From Candidatus Thorarchaeota archaeon (GTDB lineage Archaea; Asgardarchaeota; Thorarchaeia; Thorarchaeales; Thorarchaeaceae), in assembly GCA_048882385.1 (NCBI GenBank), contig JBHLRQ010000062.1, forward strand, positions 1-18,614: a stretch of DNA of 18,614 bases, written 5' to 3'. Made by a program: the position numbers and the translations under genes. Below, piece by piece: positions 2,444 to 17,124 of the stretch. How positions within the stretch are numbered: the first letter of the stretch is position 1; each line of letters begins with the position of its first letter. A model generated the notes under the pieces. That model was not told the DNA's origin. It did not search any database and was given only the letters and a program-made list of their open reading frames with translations.

Positions 2444-3196
2444 TTATTCCTTGAAAACAGTCCCTACAAGTTTCTTGAAATCTCCAGCAGGGTAGGTGAC
2501 ACGACTCTGAAGTATACCCATGTCAACAAAACTCTCAGCAACCTTGATCGCTGCAGTTAGTGGATTGATGACTGGAATTCCCACATTCCACTCTGTCTTG
2601 GCAGTCCGAAATGCCATTGACATACATCCAAGAACAACAGCACCTGCTCCATTCTCCTTTGCTTTGCTGATTGCCTTTGTTGCCTGTTTGACAATGGCTG
2701 TTGGATCATCTCCCCACATCTCAGTTATCTGCATTTCAACAAACTCAACCGATGCCAGTCTACTGTTGATCCCCATCTCACGAGTACGGGCCACAAGATC
2801 ATCTGCTACATCAAATCCTCCCGCCTGCTTTGGAGATATCACACTGAACCGGTCAGCTACCATACAGGCGAAGTGGTACGCAGACTCAGCAGGACCAATT
2901 ACTGGGACATCCATCAGTTCCCTGGCTGCACCCAGTCCCGGGTCACCAGCGCATCCGATAATGATGGCATCAAACTTATTGTTCTTGCGGAGTCTGAAGA
3001 GCCACTCTAGCATGGGTCCAACCGACATATACGCTTCAATCTCAGACTCTATTGATAGTGGTCCTTCACCGACCTCTTCTACCGTGATATTGGTTCCTGG
3101 TCTTGCCAACGAGTTTGTGACATCTTCGCGACGTTTGATTTCGTCTTCAGGCATTCCGTCGCCAGGTATTAGATAGAGCAATTCCAAGATAGACAC
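2444..3196 (-). CDS. Asp/Glu/hydantoin racemase family protein (hydantoin/allantoin racemase-like)
   Basis: GPLSIESEIE, IIGCAGDPGLGAARELMDVPVIGPAES, VLGCMSM (two catalytic Cys), GIPVINP. True start may be TTG at 3187, 6 nt after an AGGTG SD. Confidence 0.92.
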   Translation of the reverse strand: MSILELLYLIPGDGMPEDEIKRREDVTNSLARPGTNITVEEVGEGPLSIESEIEAYMSVGPMLEWLFRLRKNNKFDAIIIGCAGDPGLGAARELMDVPVIGPAESAYHFACMVADRFSVISPKQAGGFDVADDLVARTREMGINSRLASVEFVEMQITEMWGDDPTAIVKQATKAISKAKENGAGAVVLGCMSMAFRTAKTEWNVGIPVINPLTAAIKVAESFVDMGILQSRVTYPAGDFKKLVGTVFKE

Positions 3197-3402
3197 CTTC
3201 TCTCAAGATGTTAACAATCGGGTATTATACACTTTCGAGTGAGGTAAAGAGATTCTTCAATTTGTAGAAAGGAGAAAACTTGAGGTTTCAATGGCGTGAT
3301 TCAATATATCGGACAATATTTTGGTACCATCTTTGAAAGAATATATGAGTGCTTTATTTTCAATTTTGAAATCTATAAACGCCTTAAATTTGATTAGATA
3401 TG

Positions 3403-3409
3403 TTTATAT
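3403..3409 (+). promoter_or_regulatory. Candidate TATA box for the leader/micro-ORF transcript
   Basis: TTTATAT about 25 nt upstream of the start of the structured region (3434); region is AT-rich, so specificity is limited. Confidence 0.35.
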
Positions 3410-3433
3410 CCAATTAAACAGGAAAATAAGAAC

Positions 3434-3531
3434 GCGAGTTTTTTTCTGTACAGATTTCTCGCCTTAGTCCCTCATGAGATGCGGCGGCGTCCAAGGCAAG
3501 AAGAACTCTGAATGTCATGAGAGGTGACATT
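3434..3531 (+). promoter_or_regulatory. Putative structured 5' leader with alternative pairings and an SD-occluding hairpin
   Basis: Stems 3436-3445/3499-3508 and 3461-3465/3493-3497, versus 3434-3438/3458-3462; hairpin AATGTCA(3511-3517)/TGACATT(3525-3531) overlaps the SD GAGGTGA. Confidence 0.35.
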
Positions 3532-3532
3532 A

Positions 3533-3592
3533 ATGGGTAAAACAGACAAACAGAAGAAGCAGCAGAAGCCAAATCAGAAACCAAAGAAGTAG
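3533..3592 (+). CDS. Putative 19-aa Lys/Gln-rich micro-peptide MGKTDKQKKQQKPNQKPKK
   Basis: Strong archaeal SD GAGGTGA (3521-3527) 5 nt before ATG; 8 Lys and 4 Gln in 19 codons; followed by a strong hairpin. Confidence 0.55.
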   Translation: MGKTDKQKKQQKPNQKPKK

Positions 3593-3634
3593 CTTTGAGC
3601 TGATATTGGGCCCTCGTATTTTAGTTCAATCCCC

Positions 3635-3657
3635 CCGGGGAGGCAAGACCTCCCCGG
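3635..3657. terminator. Perfect GC-rich hairpin between the micro-ORF (+) and flavodoxin (-)
   Basis: CCGGGGAGG-CAAGA-CCTCCCCGG, 9-bp perfect stem. Confidence 0.65.
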
Positions 3658-3668
3658 TTCATGCCATT

Positions 3669-4178
3669 TTAGTTTTTGGACTTTATGAACGCTGGAAACT
3701 CAGTGTTCCTTAGAGTGATCCCAATCTCTCGGCCAATCTCAAAAAACCGTTCTTCAACTCCAGAATCCAGAGGGCCTTCTCTTCCATGTACAATTGCAGA
3801 TTCACGAGGTCTTATGATCTTCATTTTCAGTCGTTTCATCCTTCCTTCAATGACCCTGGCTGCGCTGTTCTCCAGAACAAATAAGCCCCGCTTGTTCATT
3901 CTGGATTCATTTCTGGTGTCAAAACTGAATCCTGATACTCCCTTGAGATTGAAGACTAACAAATCCTCAAGGAATGCACTCATTTGCTTCGAGGTCTTGA
4001 GAATGTGCGTAGGACCACCTATTGCAATGAAATCAAAGTCTGTTACACTTTTGATATCAAACTCATCAATACTTCTGCAGATAGTCTTCACTCCTGCCTT
4101 CTCGATTCCTCTTGTCAGACTCATTGCCACTGATTTCGTATTTCCATAGAGTGAGTGGTATAGTACCAGAGCCTTCAT
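3669..4178 (-). CDS. Flavodoxin-like protein
   Basis: FMN phosphate loop YHSLYGNTKSVA, DFIAIGGPTH, FSFDTR; ATGA overlap with upstream gene and GGAGG SD. Confidence 0.9.
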   Translation of the reverse strand: MKALVLYHSLYGNTKSVAMSLTRGIEKAGVKTICRSIDEFDIKSVTDFDFIAIGGPTHILKTSKQMSAFLEDLLVFNLKGVSGFSFDTRNESRMNKRGLFVLENSAARVIEGRMKRLKMKIIRPRESAIVHGREGPLDSGVEERFFEIGREIGITLRNTEFPAFIKSKN

Positions 4179-4663
4179 ACTCCATCCTCCTTATTCTCTT
4201 TATAAGAAAGGACCAACTCAACAATCAGCCCAATGACAAATCCAATCCCCAGTCCAGCTCCCATTCCCATGAACATAACAATATCAAATCCTATCAGAGC
4301 TCCCAAAAGTAACCCCCCAGCTGTCCCAAGAAAAACAATCTTGCCAACTCTTCTTCCGCTTCTAAGTCTATACGCGAAACCTACGCCAACAGCTGCGGCA
4401 GTGAATAGAGTCAGTGTGCTAATGGGTGCGAAGGAGCAATGAGAGATGTACCCCATTCGATTCACTGCTCCTGCTCCCCAAGCCAGTAACTCGGTTGGAA
4501 TTACTGTCCAAACAGCTGCAGCCAAGCATCCAACGATTAGGGCTGATATGAACGCCCATGCAGTTGCAAGGCCAAGTGTTTTGATGAATCCTCTCAGGCC
4601 TTCAGTCTTGCTTGCTACGATATGTTGTCCTCGTTCGAGTTCTATTGTATCTACTTGATTCAT
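4175..4663 (-). CDS. Hypothetical membrane protein (about 4 TM helices, Gly-rich)
   Basis: Hydrophobic segments; loop motif NRMGYISHCSFAPISTL. ATG at 4663 (AGGT upstream) preferred over TTG at 4690. Confidence 0.75.
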   Translation of the reverse strand: MNQVDTIELERGQHIVASKTEGLRGFIKTLGLATAWAFISALIVGCLAAAVWTVIPTELLAWGAGAVNRMGYISHCSFAPISTLTLFTAAAVGVGFAYRLRSGRRVGKIVFLGTAGGLLLGALIGFDIVMFMGMGAGLGIGFVIGLIVELVLSYKENKEDGV

Positions 4664-5389: not shown

Positions 5390-5427
5390 ATTTTACTCAA
5401 GTAAAATAAATTTTACTTAAGTTAATA
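5390..5427. promoter_or_regulatory. Tandem palindromic operator upstream of TetR
   Basis: ATTTTACT-CA-AGTAAAAT (5390-5407, perfect 8-bp arms) and ATTTTACT-TA-AGTTAATA (5410-5427), 20-bp period. Confidence 0.7.
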
Positions 5428-8355: not shown

Positions 8356-8994
8356 CTAGGGTTTTGGAATGATCACGTATACTCCCCCAAAATCTGAGAT
8401 TTGCTCATAGACAATGTCTAGACCCTTTCCCTCGATCATTGTCTTGAACTCATCAGCAGCCCAATAGTATTCATCATCATCCCAAGCACTAGCAAGTATT
8501 TTGCGGGCTTTTGCTCTAGCTGAGAAAGTTGGGAATGAGATGTCACCTACGATGATACATCCGTCTTCTCTTAGGAGTTCATCCACAATCCGTTTGATCA
8601 CTATAATCTTTCTTTCAAGAGTGAGGTGATGCAGTGTATACGCAGACACTATACGGTCAAACCCTATCTTGAGCTCTATAGGCCATTCAGATTCCACATC
8701 GATATGATACAGATGCGCACATGGTACCTTCTTTCCAGCCTTTTCAAGCATCTTTGATGAGTAATCTATCCCCCAAATCTCGCAATCAAAGTCAACAAAT
8801 CTCTTGGCCAGATTTCCAGTTCCGATACCTATGTCGAGAATCCGCAAACTTGGTTTCGGATCAGTGAGTTCGACAATTCTGTTCAAGACTTTCTCATAAC
8901 CCTGGAATGGAAAACTATCTGAACTGATCTTTATCCAATAGTCGTAGTTCTCAGCCCAAGCATCGAACAACTCAGGAGTTCTCTCAGGACACAT
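8356..8994 (-). CDS. Class I SAM-dependent methyltransferase
   Basis: FDAWAENYD, ILDIGIGTGNL, GIDYSSKML, FDRIVSAYTLHHL. Confidence 0.92.
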   Translation of the reverse strand: MCPERTPELFDAWAENYDYWIKISSDSFPFQGYEKVLNRIVELTDPKPSLRILDIGIGTGNLAKRFVDFDCEIWGIDYSSKMLEKAGKKVPCAHLYHIDVESEWPIELKIGFDRIVSAYTLHHLTLERKIIVIKRIVDELLREDGCIIVGDISFPTFSARAKARKILASAWDDDEYYWAADEFKTMIEGKGLDIVYEQISDFGGVYVIIPKP

Positions 8995-10172: not shown

Positions 10173-10246
10173 TATAGGACCAATGACTGAGAAACTAATA
10201 ATTGTCTTTGTTTACTGGAAAAAACTCTCTCAGGAGCAGAAATCAT

Positions 10247-11539
10247 ATGCTTTCTAAAGATGGACATGACATTGATGACACGGACAACGCTGTTCCTTTT
10301 ACTTCTCGTCTGCTCGCACATTACCGTGCTGAAGAAACTAAACGAGATGCTCGACTCATTTCAGATCCATTTGCAGAACGACTTGCAGGCGATTTGAGTC
10401 CATACTTTGAGAAACATAAACGAACCAGTGGAACTGGTGATTATGCCATAGTCCGAACATTTCACATTGATGACAAGATTTTGAATCCATGGTGCAACAC
10501 TCACAAGGAATCACAGATTGTCATTCTTGGTGCTGGACTGGATACACGCGCATATCGTATCGCCCCTCTGCAGAAGAATAAGCACACTGTCTTTGAGATT
10601 GATTTCGAGGTCGTAAACAATTACAAGGAACAAATCCTCCAGAATGAAACTCCCTTCTGCAAGCTTGTAAGAATCTCTTCTGATCTCACTAAACCAGAGT
10701 GGATTTCTGATCTATTGGAAGGAAGCTTTTCGAAAAAGATACCAACTCTCTGGATATTAGAAGGTCTCACCTACTACTTGGAACAAGATGCAGTCATATC
10801 AATTCTTCAAATAGCATCCAAGAAAAGTGCCGAAGGAAGTCAGATCTTTGCAGATCTGTGTGTACCAGGACTTACGGAAGCGCGATTTGGTCCATTCATG
10901 ATGCATTTCAAGTGGGGGTTGAACGAGGATGAAGTCCCTTCATTCTTTGAAAAATCAGGCTGGAACGTTTCAAGCTCTTTTGCTGATGAACATGATCAAG
11001 GTCGTGATGTAGGGCAGAGAGGTCTCATGTTTGTTGAAGGAACTCCTGACCCAACAGGGATAGGCGTGTACTTACTTATCGAGGAACCGAGTGAAGAAGC
11101 TGTTCTCAAAATAACAGATCCGGAACTACAGAGGCGTGCTTTGACCTTTCTGAGAAAAATCAAACCAAAAATAGAATCCATTGTGTATATGTATCAAAAG
11201 GACCGTGATAATGGTTTGAATCACTACTATGATTTTGTCATAAGGGTGTCACCAAATGTCTTGGAAATCATACAGGGGTTCTCGAACATTGTTTCAGTAG
11301 GTCATATCTCTCCTAGATTACTGAAAGACCCACTAAAAGCAGAACTTAATTCCCCTGAAGAGGAAGAAGCACACATAGTGGGCTATCTGAAGGCAATCCT
11401 CTCTCTTGCCTATTGTGGGATCAAAGGCCTTGAAGGGGAACAATATTCAAACACTAAAGTAGAGAGTGAGAGCCAGAAGGTTCGAAAACTTTCTGAAATT
11501 CCCTCTCTGATCGAGCTCATTCACAAAGAAATTAGGTGA
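10247..11539 (+). CDS. SAM-dependent methyltransferase, leucine carboxyl methyltransferase (LCM)-like family, with ~150-aa C-terminal extension
   Basis: RAEE, DPFAERLAG, VRT, QIVILGAGLDTRAYR, FEID, WILEGLTYYL; ATG at 10247 follows AGGAG. Confidence 0.88.
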   Translation: MLSKDGHDIDDTDNAVPFTSRLLAHYRAEETKRDARLISDPFAERLAGDLSPYFEKHKRTSGTGDYAIVRTFHIDDKILNPWCNTHKESQIVILGAGLDTRAYRIAPLQKNKHTVFEIDFEVVNNYKEQILQNETPFCKLVRISSDLTKPEWISDLLEGSFSKKIPTLWILEGLTYYLEQDAVISILQIASKKSAEGSQIFADLCVPGLTEARFGPFMMHFKWGLNEDEVPSFFEKSGWNVSSSFADEHDQGRDVGQRGLMFVEGTPDPTGIGVYLLIEEPSEEAVLKITDPELQRRALTFLRKIKPKIESIVYMYQKDRDNGLNHYYDFVIRVSPNVLEIIQGFSNIVSVGHISPRLLKDPLKAELNSPEEEEAHIVGYLKAILSLAYCGIKGLEGEQYSNTKVESESQKVRKLSEIPSLIELIHKEIR

Positions 11540-11932: not shown

Positions 11933-11959
11933 GAGAGGAAGGGAGTGGAGCTTCCTCTC
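11933..11959. terminator. Hairpin between convergent genes
   Basis: GAGAGGAAG-GGAGTGGAG-CTTCCTCTC, 9-bp stem. Confidence 0.6.
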
Positions 11960-11971
11960 TTCTTGGATTGA

Positions 11972-15714: not shown

Positions 15715-15779
15715 GAAATCTCCTAAGCCTTATATCTCAGCAAGTAAAGAACCCACAAAATAGCTATGTGGTTTGTACT

Positions 15780-16244
15780 ATGAAGAAAGTTCTAGTTGTC
15801 TTTGATACGACTTATGGAAATACAGAGAAGATTGGACGAGAAATTGCCGCAGGAATTGACGAATCTGGTTTGGCAGAGTGCAAGGTGATTAATATCGACG
15901 ATGTTGAGTCGGAAGACATCTCTATCTATGATGGTGTGCTCTTTGGTGGTCCAATCCACGCGTTCAGAGCTACCCGGGGAATAAAGAGTGCTGTGAACAA
16001 GGCTGCAAAGAAGGGACTCGATGGAAAACTGGTTTCTTCATTTGATACATATCAAGCTCCAGGACATGTAGGAAGAGCAGCCAAGCAGATTGAGGATGAG
16101 TTGAGGAAGAAGGCTAAAGGTGCCAAGGTCTTCTCGCCTGGTATGACAGCACTCGTCCTTGACCTCAAAGGTCCATTGAAAGACGACGAGCCTGCAAAAG
16201 CTCGTGAGTTCGGTAAACGATTTGCCAATGAACTGGGCGAATAG
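15780..16244 (+). CDS. Flavodoxin-like protein
   Basis: MKKVLVVFDTTYGNTEKIG, YDGVLFGGPIH, SSFDTY; candidate TATA (TTATAT) at 15730-15735. Confidence 0.9.
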   Translation: MKKVLVVFDTTYGNTEKIGREIAAGIDESGLAECKVINIDDVESEDISIYDGVLFGGPIHAFRATRGIKSAVNKAAKKGLDGKLVSSFDTYQAPGHVGRAAKQIEDELRKKAKGAKVFSPGMTALVLDLKGPLKDDEPAKAREFGKRFANELGE

Positions 16245-16302: not shown

Positions 16303-17124
16303 ATGAAGGATCTGGATAGGTACTACGAAGCAAATCGGACCATGTGGGACCAGTTTGCTAAGATCAACGTGGAGTCGAAGTCCTACAGGACAGAAGAATT
16401 CCTCAAGGGTGAAACTGCACTCAACTCCATCGAACTCGAAGAACTCGGTGATGTTCGAGGCAAGAGCCTGTTGCATCTTCAGTGTCACTTCGGCCTTGAT
16501 ACACTCTCTTGGGCTCGCTTGGGTGCTGATGTCACTGGTGTTGATTTTTCCGGGGAAGGGATTTCTATCGCACAGGACCTAGCGAAGAAGGCTGATATCA
16601 ATGCTAAGTTCATTCAATCAAACATATACGACCTACCTGATGTTCTGGATGAAGAATTCGACATTGTCTTCACGTCATATGGTGTACTCGTCTGGCTACA
16701 TGACCTGAAGAGATGGGCTGAGATAGTCAACCACTTTCTGAAACCTGGAGGAACCTTCTACATTGCTGAATTCCACCCACTGATGTGGATCATGGACTGG
16801 GATGACCCTGACGACTTCAAAATCGTTCGTAACTACTTTTCTAGTGGTGACCCCCATGAATTTGATGTAGAGGGGTCGTACGCTGCATCGGAAGCGAAGA
16901 TTGAATCGCAGGTCGATTATGAGTGGGGTCATGGACTTTCAAAGATTATAACCTCAATAGCTGAGGCTAGGCTCAGGATTCAGTTCTATCACGAGTTCAA
17001 TAGGATACCATTCAAGCATTTTCAATTCCTAAAACAGGAAGAGGACGGCTACTGGTACTATGACAATCCTGAGGTGCAACTCCCTCTGGTCTTTTCCATC
17101 AAGGCTACTAAAGACATTAGCTAG
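16303..17124 (+). CDS. Class I SAM-dependent methyltransferase (LHLQCHFG subfamily)
   Basis: LLHLQCHFGLDTLSWARLGADVTGVDFS, FDIVFTSYG, LKPGGTFYIAEFHP. Confidence 0.92.
   Translation: MKDLDRYYEANRTMWDQFAKINVESKSYRTEEFLKGETALNSIELEELGDVRGKSLLHLQCHFGLDTLSWARLGADVTGVDFSGEGISIAQDLAKKADINAKFIQSNIYDLPDVLDEEFDIVFTSYGVLVWLHDLKRWAEIVNHFLKPGGTFYIAEFHPLMWIMDWDDPDDFKIVRNYFSSGDPHEFDVEGSYAASEAKIESQVDYEWGHGLSKIITSIAEARLRIQFYHEFNRIPFKHFQFLKQEEDGYWYYDNPEVQLPLVFSIKATKDIS

Follow-up and report, generated by a model that had tools for sequence, protein, structure and literature searches.

What distinguishes a gene from a chance reading frame when the frame is only 19 codons long, and what might a product of that size do in an Asgard archaeon? 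Both questions are raised by a short plus-strand open reading frame (ORF) at positions 3533 to 3592 of contig JBHLRQ010000062.1 from a Candidatus Thorarchaeota archaeon (assembly GCA_048882385.1); the whole stretch of 18,614 nucleotides (nt) that was analysed is called the window here. An earlier note on this DNA had proposed a small gene, reading a GAGGTGA Shine-Dalgarno (SD) sequence, an ATG at 3533, a frame of 19 residues with its stop at 3592 and a 9-bp hairpin beyond it, all of which are found as claimed. Comparison with related genomes makes it very likely that the frame is a genuine stand-alone micro-protein gene, and the products of such micro-genes are a new family among the unannotated small basic proteins. 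The explanation preferred for the locus as a whole, with a probability of about 0.6, is that of a stand-alone Thorarchaeota micro-protein gene whose product would dock, as a disordered polycation, on a polyanionic partner.

Selection on the peptide and distribution of the gene

The evidence for coding lies in how the frame varies among relatives. When eight species of the genus are compared, 6, 4 and 14 sites vary at codon positions 1, 2 and 3, and the invariant shares of these positions are 13/18, 14/18 and 5/18, compared with 8/33 and 5/18 in neutral flanks; position 3 is as free as the flanks, and positions 1 and 2 are constrained. Eight within-genus pairs from genera g24, g25, g26 and g27 show 12 pairwise differences within the ORF, all 12 at position 3, and the paired peptides are identical save for one whole-codon insertion or deletion (indel), while the leaders of the same pairs differ at 2-29 of 100 positions and their 40-nt spacers at 1-18. 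In a metagenome contig (L351), 6 of 60 bases differ, again all at position 3, and the peptide is identical. Indels among homologues measure 3 or 6 nt, that is, whole codons, and in an alignment of 18 homologues the conserved columns are M1, K3, K16, P17 and K18. Such an excess of synonymous change, combined with whole-codon indels, is the behaviour of protein-coding sequence, and these comparisons show purifying selection on the predicted peptide. The earlier note had named a synonymous bias as a check on its proposal; variation in relatives is indeed concentrated at synonymous sites, and the SD, start, frame and stop position of the small plus-strand gene are all kept.

The peptide, MGKTDKQKKQQKPNQKPKK, contains eight Lys, one Asp and two Pro, is rich in Pro and Gln, and has no hydrophobic, Cys, His, Arg or Trp residues. 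Its family, which the earlier note did not recognise, is matched by nothing known: scans of five homologues of 20-25 residues against Pfam (E up to 10) and NCBIfam gave no match, a profile search of PDB chains with the peptide family gave 0 matches, and none of nine exact related peptides of at least 20 residues occurs in a collection of 15 billion proteins. Nothing on such peptides in Asgard archaea was found in the literature as far as it was accessible, and small-protein catalogues may hold them.

The distribution of the micro-ORF together with its surrounding elements, hereafter the unit, was established by several searches. A DNA search with the intergenic region covered 41 related genomes, including the window's own, and matched 11, own genome counted; seven relatives align across the micro-ORF region at 76-88% identity, and three match just a 27-30-nt piece of spacer outside it. 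Among the 86 genomes of the family, a plain DNA search matched 14, and a covariance model built from 13 units (cut-off E up to 0.01) matched 25. Sixteen new loci found by the model were inspected: ten are SD-led Lys-rich micro-ORFs of the window's type, two belong to a second, acidic/basic type described below, three are Lys-rich ends of long frames and one is unclear. The units confirmed by inspection after both searches occur in 21 of the 86 genomes and 8 of 16 genera, namely g1 (8 genomes), g25 (3), g26 (3), g24 (2), g27 (2), g16 (1), g19 (1) and g22 (1). The window's own genome (G000) carries a single copy. In genus g26 the unit is tandemly duplicated, with copies about 500 nt apart (L130:998-1175 and 1501-1670; L131:1501-1670 and 1999-2176; L132:988-1107 and 1501-1639) that encode the paralogous peptides MAKDKKGKKTTDEKKKKPKK and MAKNNKGKKTTEEKKQKPKK / MAKDNKAKKTTDEKKQRPKK.

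A pattern search of relatives, which the earlier note had suggested, recovers much the same set. The strict pattern (GAGGTGA, 3-9 nt, RTG, any codon, AAR, 24-54 nt, CCN AAR AAR TAR) has 22 matches in 19 of the 86 family genomes, and its reversed control has 0; a looser pattern finds the same 19 genomes, with two control matches. The strict pattern is blind to the frame between its ends, and 22 of its 22 matches are in frame; 20 were translated, and the second copies in G088 and G089 were read by eye from the matched strings. At least two further copies of the unit are present among the 80 metagenome loci listed, and none of the 19 pattern matches in viral contigs belongs to the family, which is not viral.

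In a tree of elongation factor 2 (EF-2) that covers the 30 family rows with the best scores (G016, G021 and G003 have no EF-2 match and were left out), all six gene-bearing species of the genus that are present fall in one clade of ten species with support 100/98. The micro-gene occurs in 6 of the 10 species of that clade and in 0 of the 13 other rows of the genus; among the four clade members without it, one is near-identical to a bearer and 74% complete, and three form a subgroup. The pattern is, as far as this tree goes, one of apparent vertical inheritance with loss, recurring in several genera. The family genomes are 52-99% complete, and some absences are gaps. Beyond the family, the covariance model matched 22 of 151 phylum genomes and the looser pattern 48 of 400 genomes in a wider set; outside the family about 32 pattern matches stand against about 23 reversed-control matches (counted from the table), nearly equal rates. 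SD-led Lys-rich micro-ORFs were also seen in other Asgard families (L140, L143, L235, L241, L249 and L256; examples are MAKKKKATKKKTQAKSKQKK, MGKKGRRQNKKKPKPKK, MAKKKKVTSKKKSTGKKSKK and MSKKKKEGKKGKKKK), whose kinship to the window's family cannot be shown. A search for related loci by way of the neighbouring unknown protein found none.

Anatomy of the unit and its neighbourhood

In the window, the micro-ORF lies in a gap of 472 nt between two minus-strand genes, and the elements in and around this gap are as follows.

2444-3196, minus strand: Asp/Glu racemase gene, flanking the gap
3395-3411, plus strand: element TAGATATGTTTATATCC resembling a B recognition element (BRE) and TATA box (TTTATAT at 3403-3409), about 130 nt before the ATG; putative promoter
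3431-3532, plus strand: predicted 5' untranslated leader of about 100 nt, its start placed from the TATA position
3445-3454, plus strand: leader palindrome TCTGTACAGA, from the inverted-repeat listing
3521-3527, plus strand: Shine-Dalgarno sequence GAGGTGA, 5 nt ahead of the ATG
3533-3592, plus strand: micro-ORF of 19 sense codons (ATG 3533-3535, TAG 3590-3592), read from the sequence
3593-3634, plus strand: variable 3' spacer from stop codon to hairpin, with little conservation in the genus alignment
3635-3643 and 3649-3657, unstranded: perfect GC-rich 9-bp hairpin CCGGGGAGG-caaga-CCTCCCCGG, 100% complementary with a 5-nt loop
3667-3677, plus strand: T runs 3' of the hairpin (TTTT 3667-3670, TTTTT 3673-3677), overlapping the flavodoxin stop codon (3669-3671)
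3669-4178, minus strand: flavodoxin gene, convergent to the micro-ORF and last in an operon that also encodes a TetR regulator and an unknown protein

The racemase and the flavodoxin on the minus strand are the flanks that the earlier note had given. Each part of the unit can be followed into relatives. A TATA-like box, mostly TTTATAT, lies 124-137 nt before the start codon in genera g1, g25, g16, g27 and g22, and in the eight genus species 15 of 19 columns (79%) of the TATA region are invariant, against 8 of 33 far upstream; the archaeal promoter consensus is the basis for reading 3395-3411 as a promoter. About 25 nt past the box come a G-rich block and a T run, with TGTACAG in most genera. 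The zone from the TATA-like box to the start site is invariant at 5 of 18 columns in the genus, the leader at 48 of 89 (neutral flanks, 24-28%), and the SD with its spacer at 10 of 12; some sequence blocks of the leader are common to several genera. The ORF thus travels with its own TATA/BRE-like element at a fixed distance and with a 3' hairpin, as an independent transcription unit would.

The SD and start codon can likewise be followed across genera: GAGGTGA is invariant in all 22 units, 4-9 nt before a start codon that is ATG or GTG in every one. It pairs with seven bases of the 3' end of 16S ribosomal RNA (rRNA), ...GGATCACCTCCT in a genome of the same family, and in the host genome the full 7-mer precedes the start of 35 of 2483 long frames (577 have a 5-mer of that type), which places the micro-ORF within the strongest 1.4% of SD sites. 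The frames that follow have 17-25 codons, are rich in Lys, Pro and Gln, begin with M-[A/G/S]-K and mostly end with K-P-K-K.

A perfect GC-rich stem of 6-12 bp begins 26-52 nt after the stop in 21 of the 22 units. Shuffling the 100 nt after the stop attains the stem score of the window in 0 of 1000 trials, and across the 21 units shuffled downstream regions attain the observed stem in 0-25 of 1000. The arms co-vary between genera (GGGGAGG/CCTCCCC, CAGGAGGATTT/AAATCCTCCTG, GGAGGAGT/ACTCCTCC, GAGGGGGG/CCCCCCTC, GGCCAG/CTGGCC and AGAGAGAGT/ACTCTCTCT). A run of at least four T within 35 nt of the stem, a weak feature, is found in only 10 of 22 units. In the window, the hairpin at 3635-3657 probably marks a 3' end or acts as a terminator, and would serve the convergent flavodoxin gene as well. 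The two other strong hairpins to which the earlier note had drawn attention, near 1174 and 11933, do exist and lie between convergent frames (GAGAGGC-taaat-GCCTCTC at 1173-1191 and GAGAGGAAG-ggagtggag-CTTCCTCTC at 11935-11963). In all three a purine-rich arm is followed by a pyrimidine-rich arm, a general habit of gene-end hairpins in the host genome; the idea that SD-like hairpin arms serve as a ribosome decoy was rejected, since the two other hairpins have the same arms.

The strong conservation of the leader suggests that regulation may act after transcription starts, and it also supports reading the transcript of about 240 nt as a functional small RNA, possibly of dual function, in which the frame is incidental or secondary. 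Folding predictions give 3432-3662 a stability above that of shuffled sequences (z = -2.58), the 3' hairpin is conserved, and, since a purine tract poor in T lacks stops in every frame, an open frame by itself is no proof of coding. Dual-function small RNAs of the SgrS/SgrT and RNAIII/hld type are comparable in that a long conserved untranslated part and a micro-ORF, both constrained, share a short transcript. However, for the unit no target pairing or RNA family was identified, and the context is archaeal. Nor does the variation look like that of an RNA element, with its three-base periodicity, a position 3 as free as neutral flanks, an invariant SD and start codon, and length changes in whole codons. 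A search of Rfam 15 gave 0 matches at the gathering score and two at chance level (E 2.4 and 4.9); below threshold, the window scores at best 15.6 and 12 bits where 60 and 55 are required, and it contains no transfer RNA or Rfam family. A consensus fold of 22 leaders across genera (RNAalifold) has 0 pairs. The small-RNA reading is therefore improbable beside that of a micro-protein gene.

Several smaller ideas about the leader were also followed. Masking of the SD, for which a genus consensus fold pairs AATGTCAT (3511-3518) with GTGACATT (3524-3531), was dropped, since the SD of the units is no more paired than that of control genes (see below). A tentative long-range pairing, with double changes in two of its pairs, is predicted within the genus between codons 6-9 and a U tract of the leader. 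A link to TetR, whose gene is divergent from the unit in three relatives, was rejected because the palindrome of the TetR promoter (5392-5425) differs from TCTGTACAGA.

The neighbourhood of the unit bears on two further alternatives. Between genera the neighbouring genes change; UPF0047, MarR and AsnC-type regulators, FtsZ and peptidases are among them. In the genus itself the surroundings are rearranged but remain a single neighbourhood, and a flavodoxin-like gene lies downstream of the unit in 8 of 8 species, co-directional in six and convergent in the window and G013. In the window, that gene and the upstream LCM methyltransferase have their orthologues at a distance of 7-12 kb. Where the flavodoxin-like gene is co-directional, about 100-200 nt from the hairpin, the unit could be taken for a cis-acting upstream ORF whose Lys-rich frame, when translated, controls read-through of the hairpin into the next gene, the peptide itself being functionless. 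The hairpin and T runs look like a terminator and the frame is rich in one amino acid, much as in the bacterial attenuation leader peptides trpL and hisL. Yet the next gene is convergent in G000, G013 and three g25 genomes and the neighbours are unrelated in g16, g19, g24 and g27, so that the host genome and several other genera offer no co-directional gene to regulate; moreover, the window's orthologue of the flavodoxin-like gene (15768-16244, 63% identical) has no micro-ORF ahead of it. Conservation at the amino-acid level extends to residues other than Lys and to both termini (M-x-K..., ...K-P-K-K), a selection on the peptide itself that a codon-sensing leader does not need, and an alternative antiterminator pairing was looked for and none was found. 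On this balance attenuation is an unlikely account.

Far less credible still is that there is no gene at all, the frame being a chance product of the T-rich terminator region of the flavodoxin operon, or the antisense frame being the real product. The hairpin does lie 11 nt from the flavodoxin stop, and the antisense frame at 3530-3625 is a Leu/Phe-rich stretch. But that frame has no ATG, GTG or TTG, and most of the variation falls on sense position 3, the first position of an antisense codon. The earlier note had itself allowed that the A-rich tract might be merely the terminator region of the flavodoxin operon; this is excluded, for the unit is intact where the downstream gene is co-directional or unrelated and no convergent gene exists. 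The absence of a gene is thus already contradicted by the comparative data as they stand. A hydrophobic peptide resembling type I toxins was likewise rejected, the sense peptide having no hydrophobic stretch and the antisense frame no start codon.

In a sediment metatranscriptome (one run, one study), a 207-nt contig with a word depth of 20.6 is 100% identical to 3536-3742; it runs through the micro-ORF and the hairpin and 74 nt into the 3' end of the flavodoxin gene. Being strand-blind and without ends, it is only a hint that the region exists as RNA. Run X1 has nothing else on 2900-4400, a lack of cover that is uninterpretable, and run X2, of unspecified type, contains a 205-nt contig of a relative, covering 3382-3575.

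Known systems, a proposed mechanism and possible partners

The earlier note had compared the peptide with the ribosomal protein eL41 (PF05162), and tiny basic lineage-specific ribosomal proteins also include Thermus bTHX and mycobacterial bS22/bL37. The likeness is real in that eL41 is very short, highly basic, unable to fold alone and missed by gene callers, with a strong translation signal and the idea of RNA binding by charge. The comparison nevertheless fails on composition and on distribution: the window's peptide, rich in Lys, Pro and Gln, has neither Arg nor Trp, in contrast to an Arg-rich, Trp-containing ORF of eL41 type in G112, and the gene is a stand-alone unit with a 100-nt leader that occurs patchily, in 21 of 86 family genomes, rather than universally. 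A core ribosomal protein would not be expected to be so restricted by clade (6 of 10 species in one clade, 0 of 13 other rows). A genome-wide search with PF05162 gave one match of 12.5 bits, on contig C29, and none at the micro-ORF locus, a weak control because M. jannaschii also falls below the cut-off. The G112 ORF (L155), an Arg-rich frame that ends in MRRKWLKKRRRRMKRKQRRRKK and resembles eL41, was found by the covariance model through its purine-rich codons.

Two other comparisons concern size and composition. The 23-residue sP26 of Methanosarcina mazei, as far as the accessible part of its description goes, is likewise an archaeal protein of about 20 residues from an unannotated small ORF with a transcript of its own, and it offers a precedent for such peptides acting through a larger binding partner; it differs in belonging to an unrelated lineage and in having experimental support, whereas the window's peptide is known from DNA. 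Lys/Pro/Ala-rich tails with SPKK-type motifs are found in linker histones and bacterial histone-like proteins. They share with the micro-peptides, which end in KPKK or KPKPKPKK, a composition of K, P and Q/A and the expected binding of a disordered polycation to nucleic acid; these tails, however, belong to larger folded proteins, whereas the micro-peptide is free and has 17-25 residues, and no homology can be claimed for low-complexity sequence.

The mechanism that would account for the unit begins with a TATA/BRE-type promoter near 3395-3411 that would drive a plus-strand RNA of some 230-250 nt, consisting of the leader, conserved and about 100 nt long, a Shine-Dalgarno sequence close to perfect, the 19-codon frame and the GC-rich 3' hairpin. 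To judge by its composition, the 19-residue peptide could not fold alone and would be disordered, and it may dock as a polycation on a specific polyanionic partner. Strong selection on so low-complexity a peptide suggests a defined binding site and not bulk charge screening; peptides that stay identical while their flanks diverge by 20-45% point the same way. As partner, a structured RNA or the ribosome, with the peptide as an accessory and dispensable factor, would rank first, followed by DNA and then by an acidic micro-protein.

Several observations weigh against this explanation. The codon-position counts come from relatives that represent about 8-9 lineages and so are not independent events; the position-3 signal is consistent in every lineage compared. 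The mean pairing probability of the SD is 0.45 in the 22 units against 0.59 in 60 control genes that share its SD type, and an SD no more base-paired than in controls leaves the simplest regulatory model without support. In the genus, the leader is nearly as constrained as the frame, so that a role at the RNA level may coexist with coding. The metatranscriptome contig at 3536-3742, strandless, single and short, could stem from the flavodoxin 3' end. The searches failed to find the gene in 65 of the 86 genomes of the family, and 4 of the 10 species in its clade likewise yielded none, from which it follows that its role would be dispensable or replaceable. Finally, the case for translation and binding is built from sequence comparison and composition.

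An acidic partner deserves separate mention. The window's own genome carries, on contig C1 at 28305-28518 (L198:1306-1516), a bicistronic pair of micro-ORFs: the first (28305-28382), with GAGGTGA and ATG, encodes an ultra-acidic Asp/Trp peptide of 26 residues, MHFDDEDVWADDDDDDWDDDDDDEDW, and about 70 nt later comes a Lys-rich frame of 21 residues, MAKKKPAKKTKTETPSKKKKK, followed by a GC hairpin and a T run. Neither peptide occurs in the collection of 15 billion proteins. DNA matches to this locus, many of them confined to its acidic, low-complexity part, are present in 60 of the 86 family genomes, and an acidic ORF followed by a MAKKK- or MSKKK-type Lys-rich ORF was seen at 20 of 30 related loci inspected. 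The target of the window's peptide might then be such an ultra-acidic micro-protein, the two forming a disordered polyelectrolyte complex. The shared GAGGTGA and the acidic-then-basic order in the same genome speak for this, but no acidic frame accompanies the window's unit, and homology between the two units was rejected because, apart from the SD and Lys codons, their DNA is not significantly similar; as the identity of the partner it seems unlikely.

A broader and quite speculative extension, which we regard as improbable, is that Thorarchaeota, and perhaps other Asgard archaea, possess a hidden layer of polyelectrolyte micro-proteins, basic and acidic, that would tune the activity of chromatin or ribosomes. 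Free Lys-rich peptides of 17-25 residues, from the window's gene and of the MAKKKPAKK...KKKK type, would form its basic side and free ultra-acidic Asp/Trp peptides of about 26 residues its acidic side, in disordered high-affinity complexes with each other and with nucleic acids. If true, this layer would be a minimal archaeal counterpart of the eukaryotic pairing of linker-histone tails with acidic chaperones.

Other observations and the meaning of the gene

The host assembly comprises 3.7 Mb in 256 contigs with 42.7% G+C, and neither mcrA nor a 16S gene was found in it. Its ribosomal protein L15e, a protein confined to archaea and eukaryotes, is 94% identical to that of Candidatus Thorarchaeota, in keeping with an Asgard host. 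In the window, two adjacent copies of a palindrome of 16-18 nt (TTTACTCAAGTAAAAT / ATTTTACTTAAGTTAA, 5392-5425) just upstream of the TetR-led operon are probably its operator. Paralogous accessory genes are abundant (10202-11539, 15768-16244, 8356-8994 and 16303-17124), comprising two flavodoxin-like genes, an LCM-type methyltransferase, several S-adenosylmethionine (SAM) methyltransferases and Kelch-repeat proteins, and their order varies among the species of the genus. Elsewhere, in the 16S gene of G042, a genome of the same family (L257:1404-1500, minus strand), ...GGTATCCGTAGCGG and ...CTGCGGATGGATCACCTCCT are separated by about 70-90 nt of unrelated sequence that forms hairpins and resembles an insertion or intron close to the 3' end.

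The pattern searches also brought up two micro-ORF families unrelated to that of the window. An identical SD-led frame of 18 residues, MPKGKGTYGTKKGRPPKK, accounts for 8 of the 19 viral-contig matches (L294, L297, L299, L301, L306, L307, L309 and L312) and for 8 of the 80 metagenome matches listed (L313, L318, L338, L359, L367, L369, L373 and L387), and is a separate conserved micro-ORF, apparently viral. About 16 listed metagenome loci (L330, L336, L337, L356, L365, L366, L370, L376, L382, L390, L323, L347, L360, L374, L334 and L362) carry a Lys/Pro/Gly-rich frame of 14-24 residues, such as VQKKPMPGKPGPKK, behind AGGAGGTGAT, with a strong GGGGTGGGAG...CTCCCACCCC hairpin within about 15-25 nt. 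Some of these loci have promoters resembling TTGACA-17-TATAAT, which makes their hosts probably bacterial.

Asgard archaea are the closest known relatives of eukaryotes; nearly all of their genomes are derived from metagenomes, and annotation programs ignore frames this short. The interest of the present locus lies in the combination of this lineage with a clean evolutionary signal: it provides a comparatively validated example of a gene of 19 residues, with a promoter-like element, a leader, a ribosome-binding site, a 3' hairpin and a peptide that is under purifying selection. Within the family, a simple pattern (strong SD, start codon, Lys at codon 3, Pro-Lys-Lys-stop) is enough to pick out such genes, and false positives are almost absent. 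Should the peptide bind ribosomes, chromatin or acidic micro-proteins, it would represent an unrecognised class of regulators in Asgard archaea.

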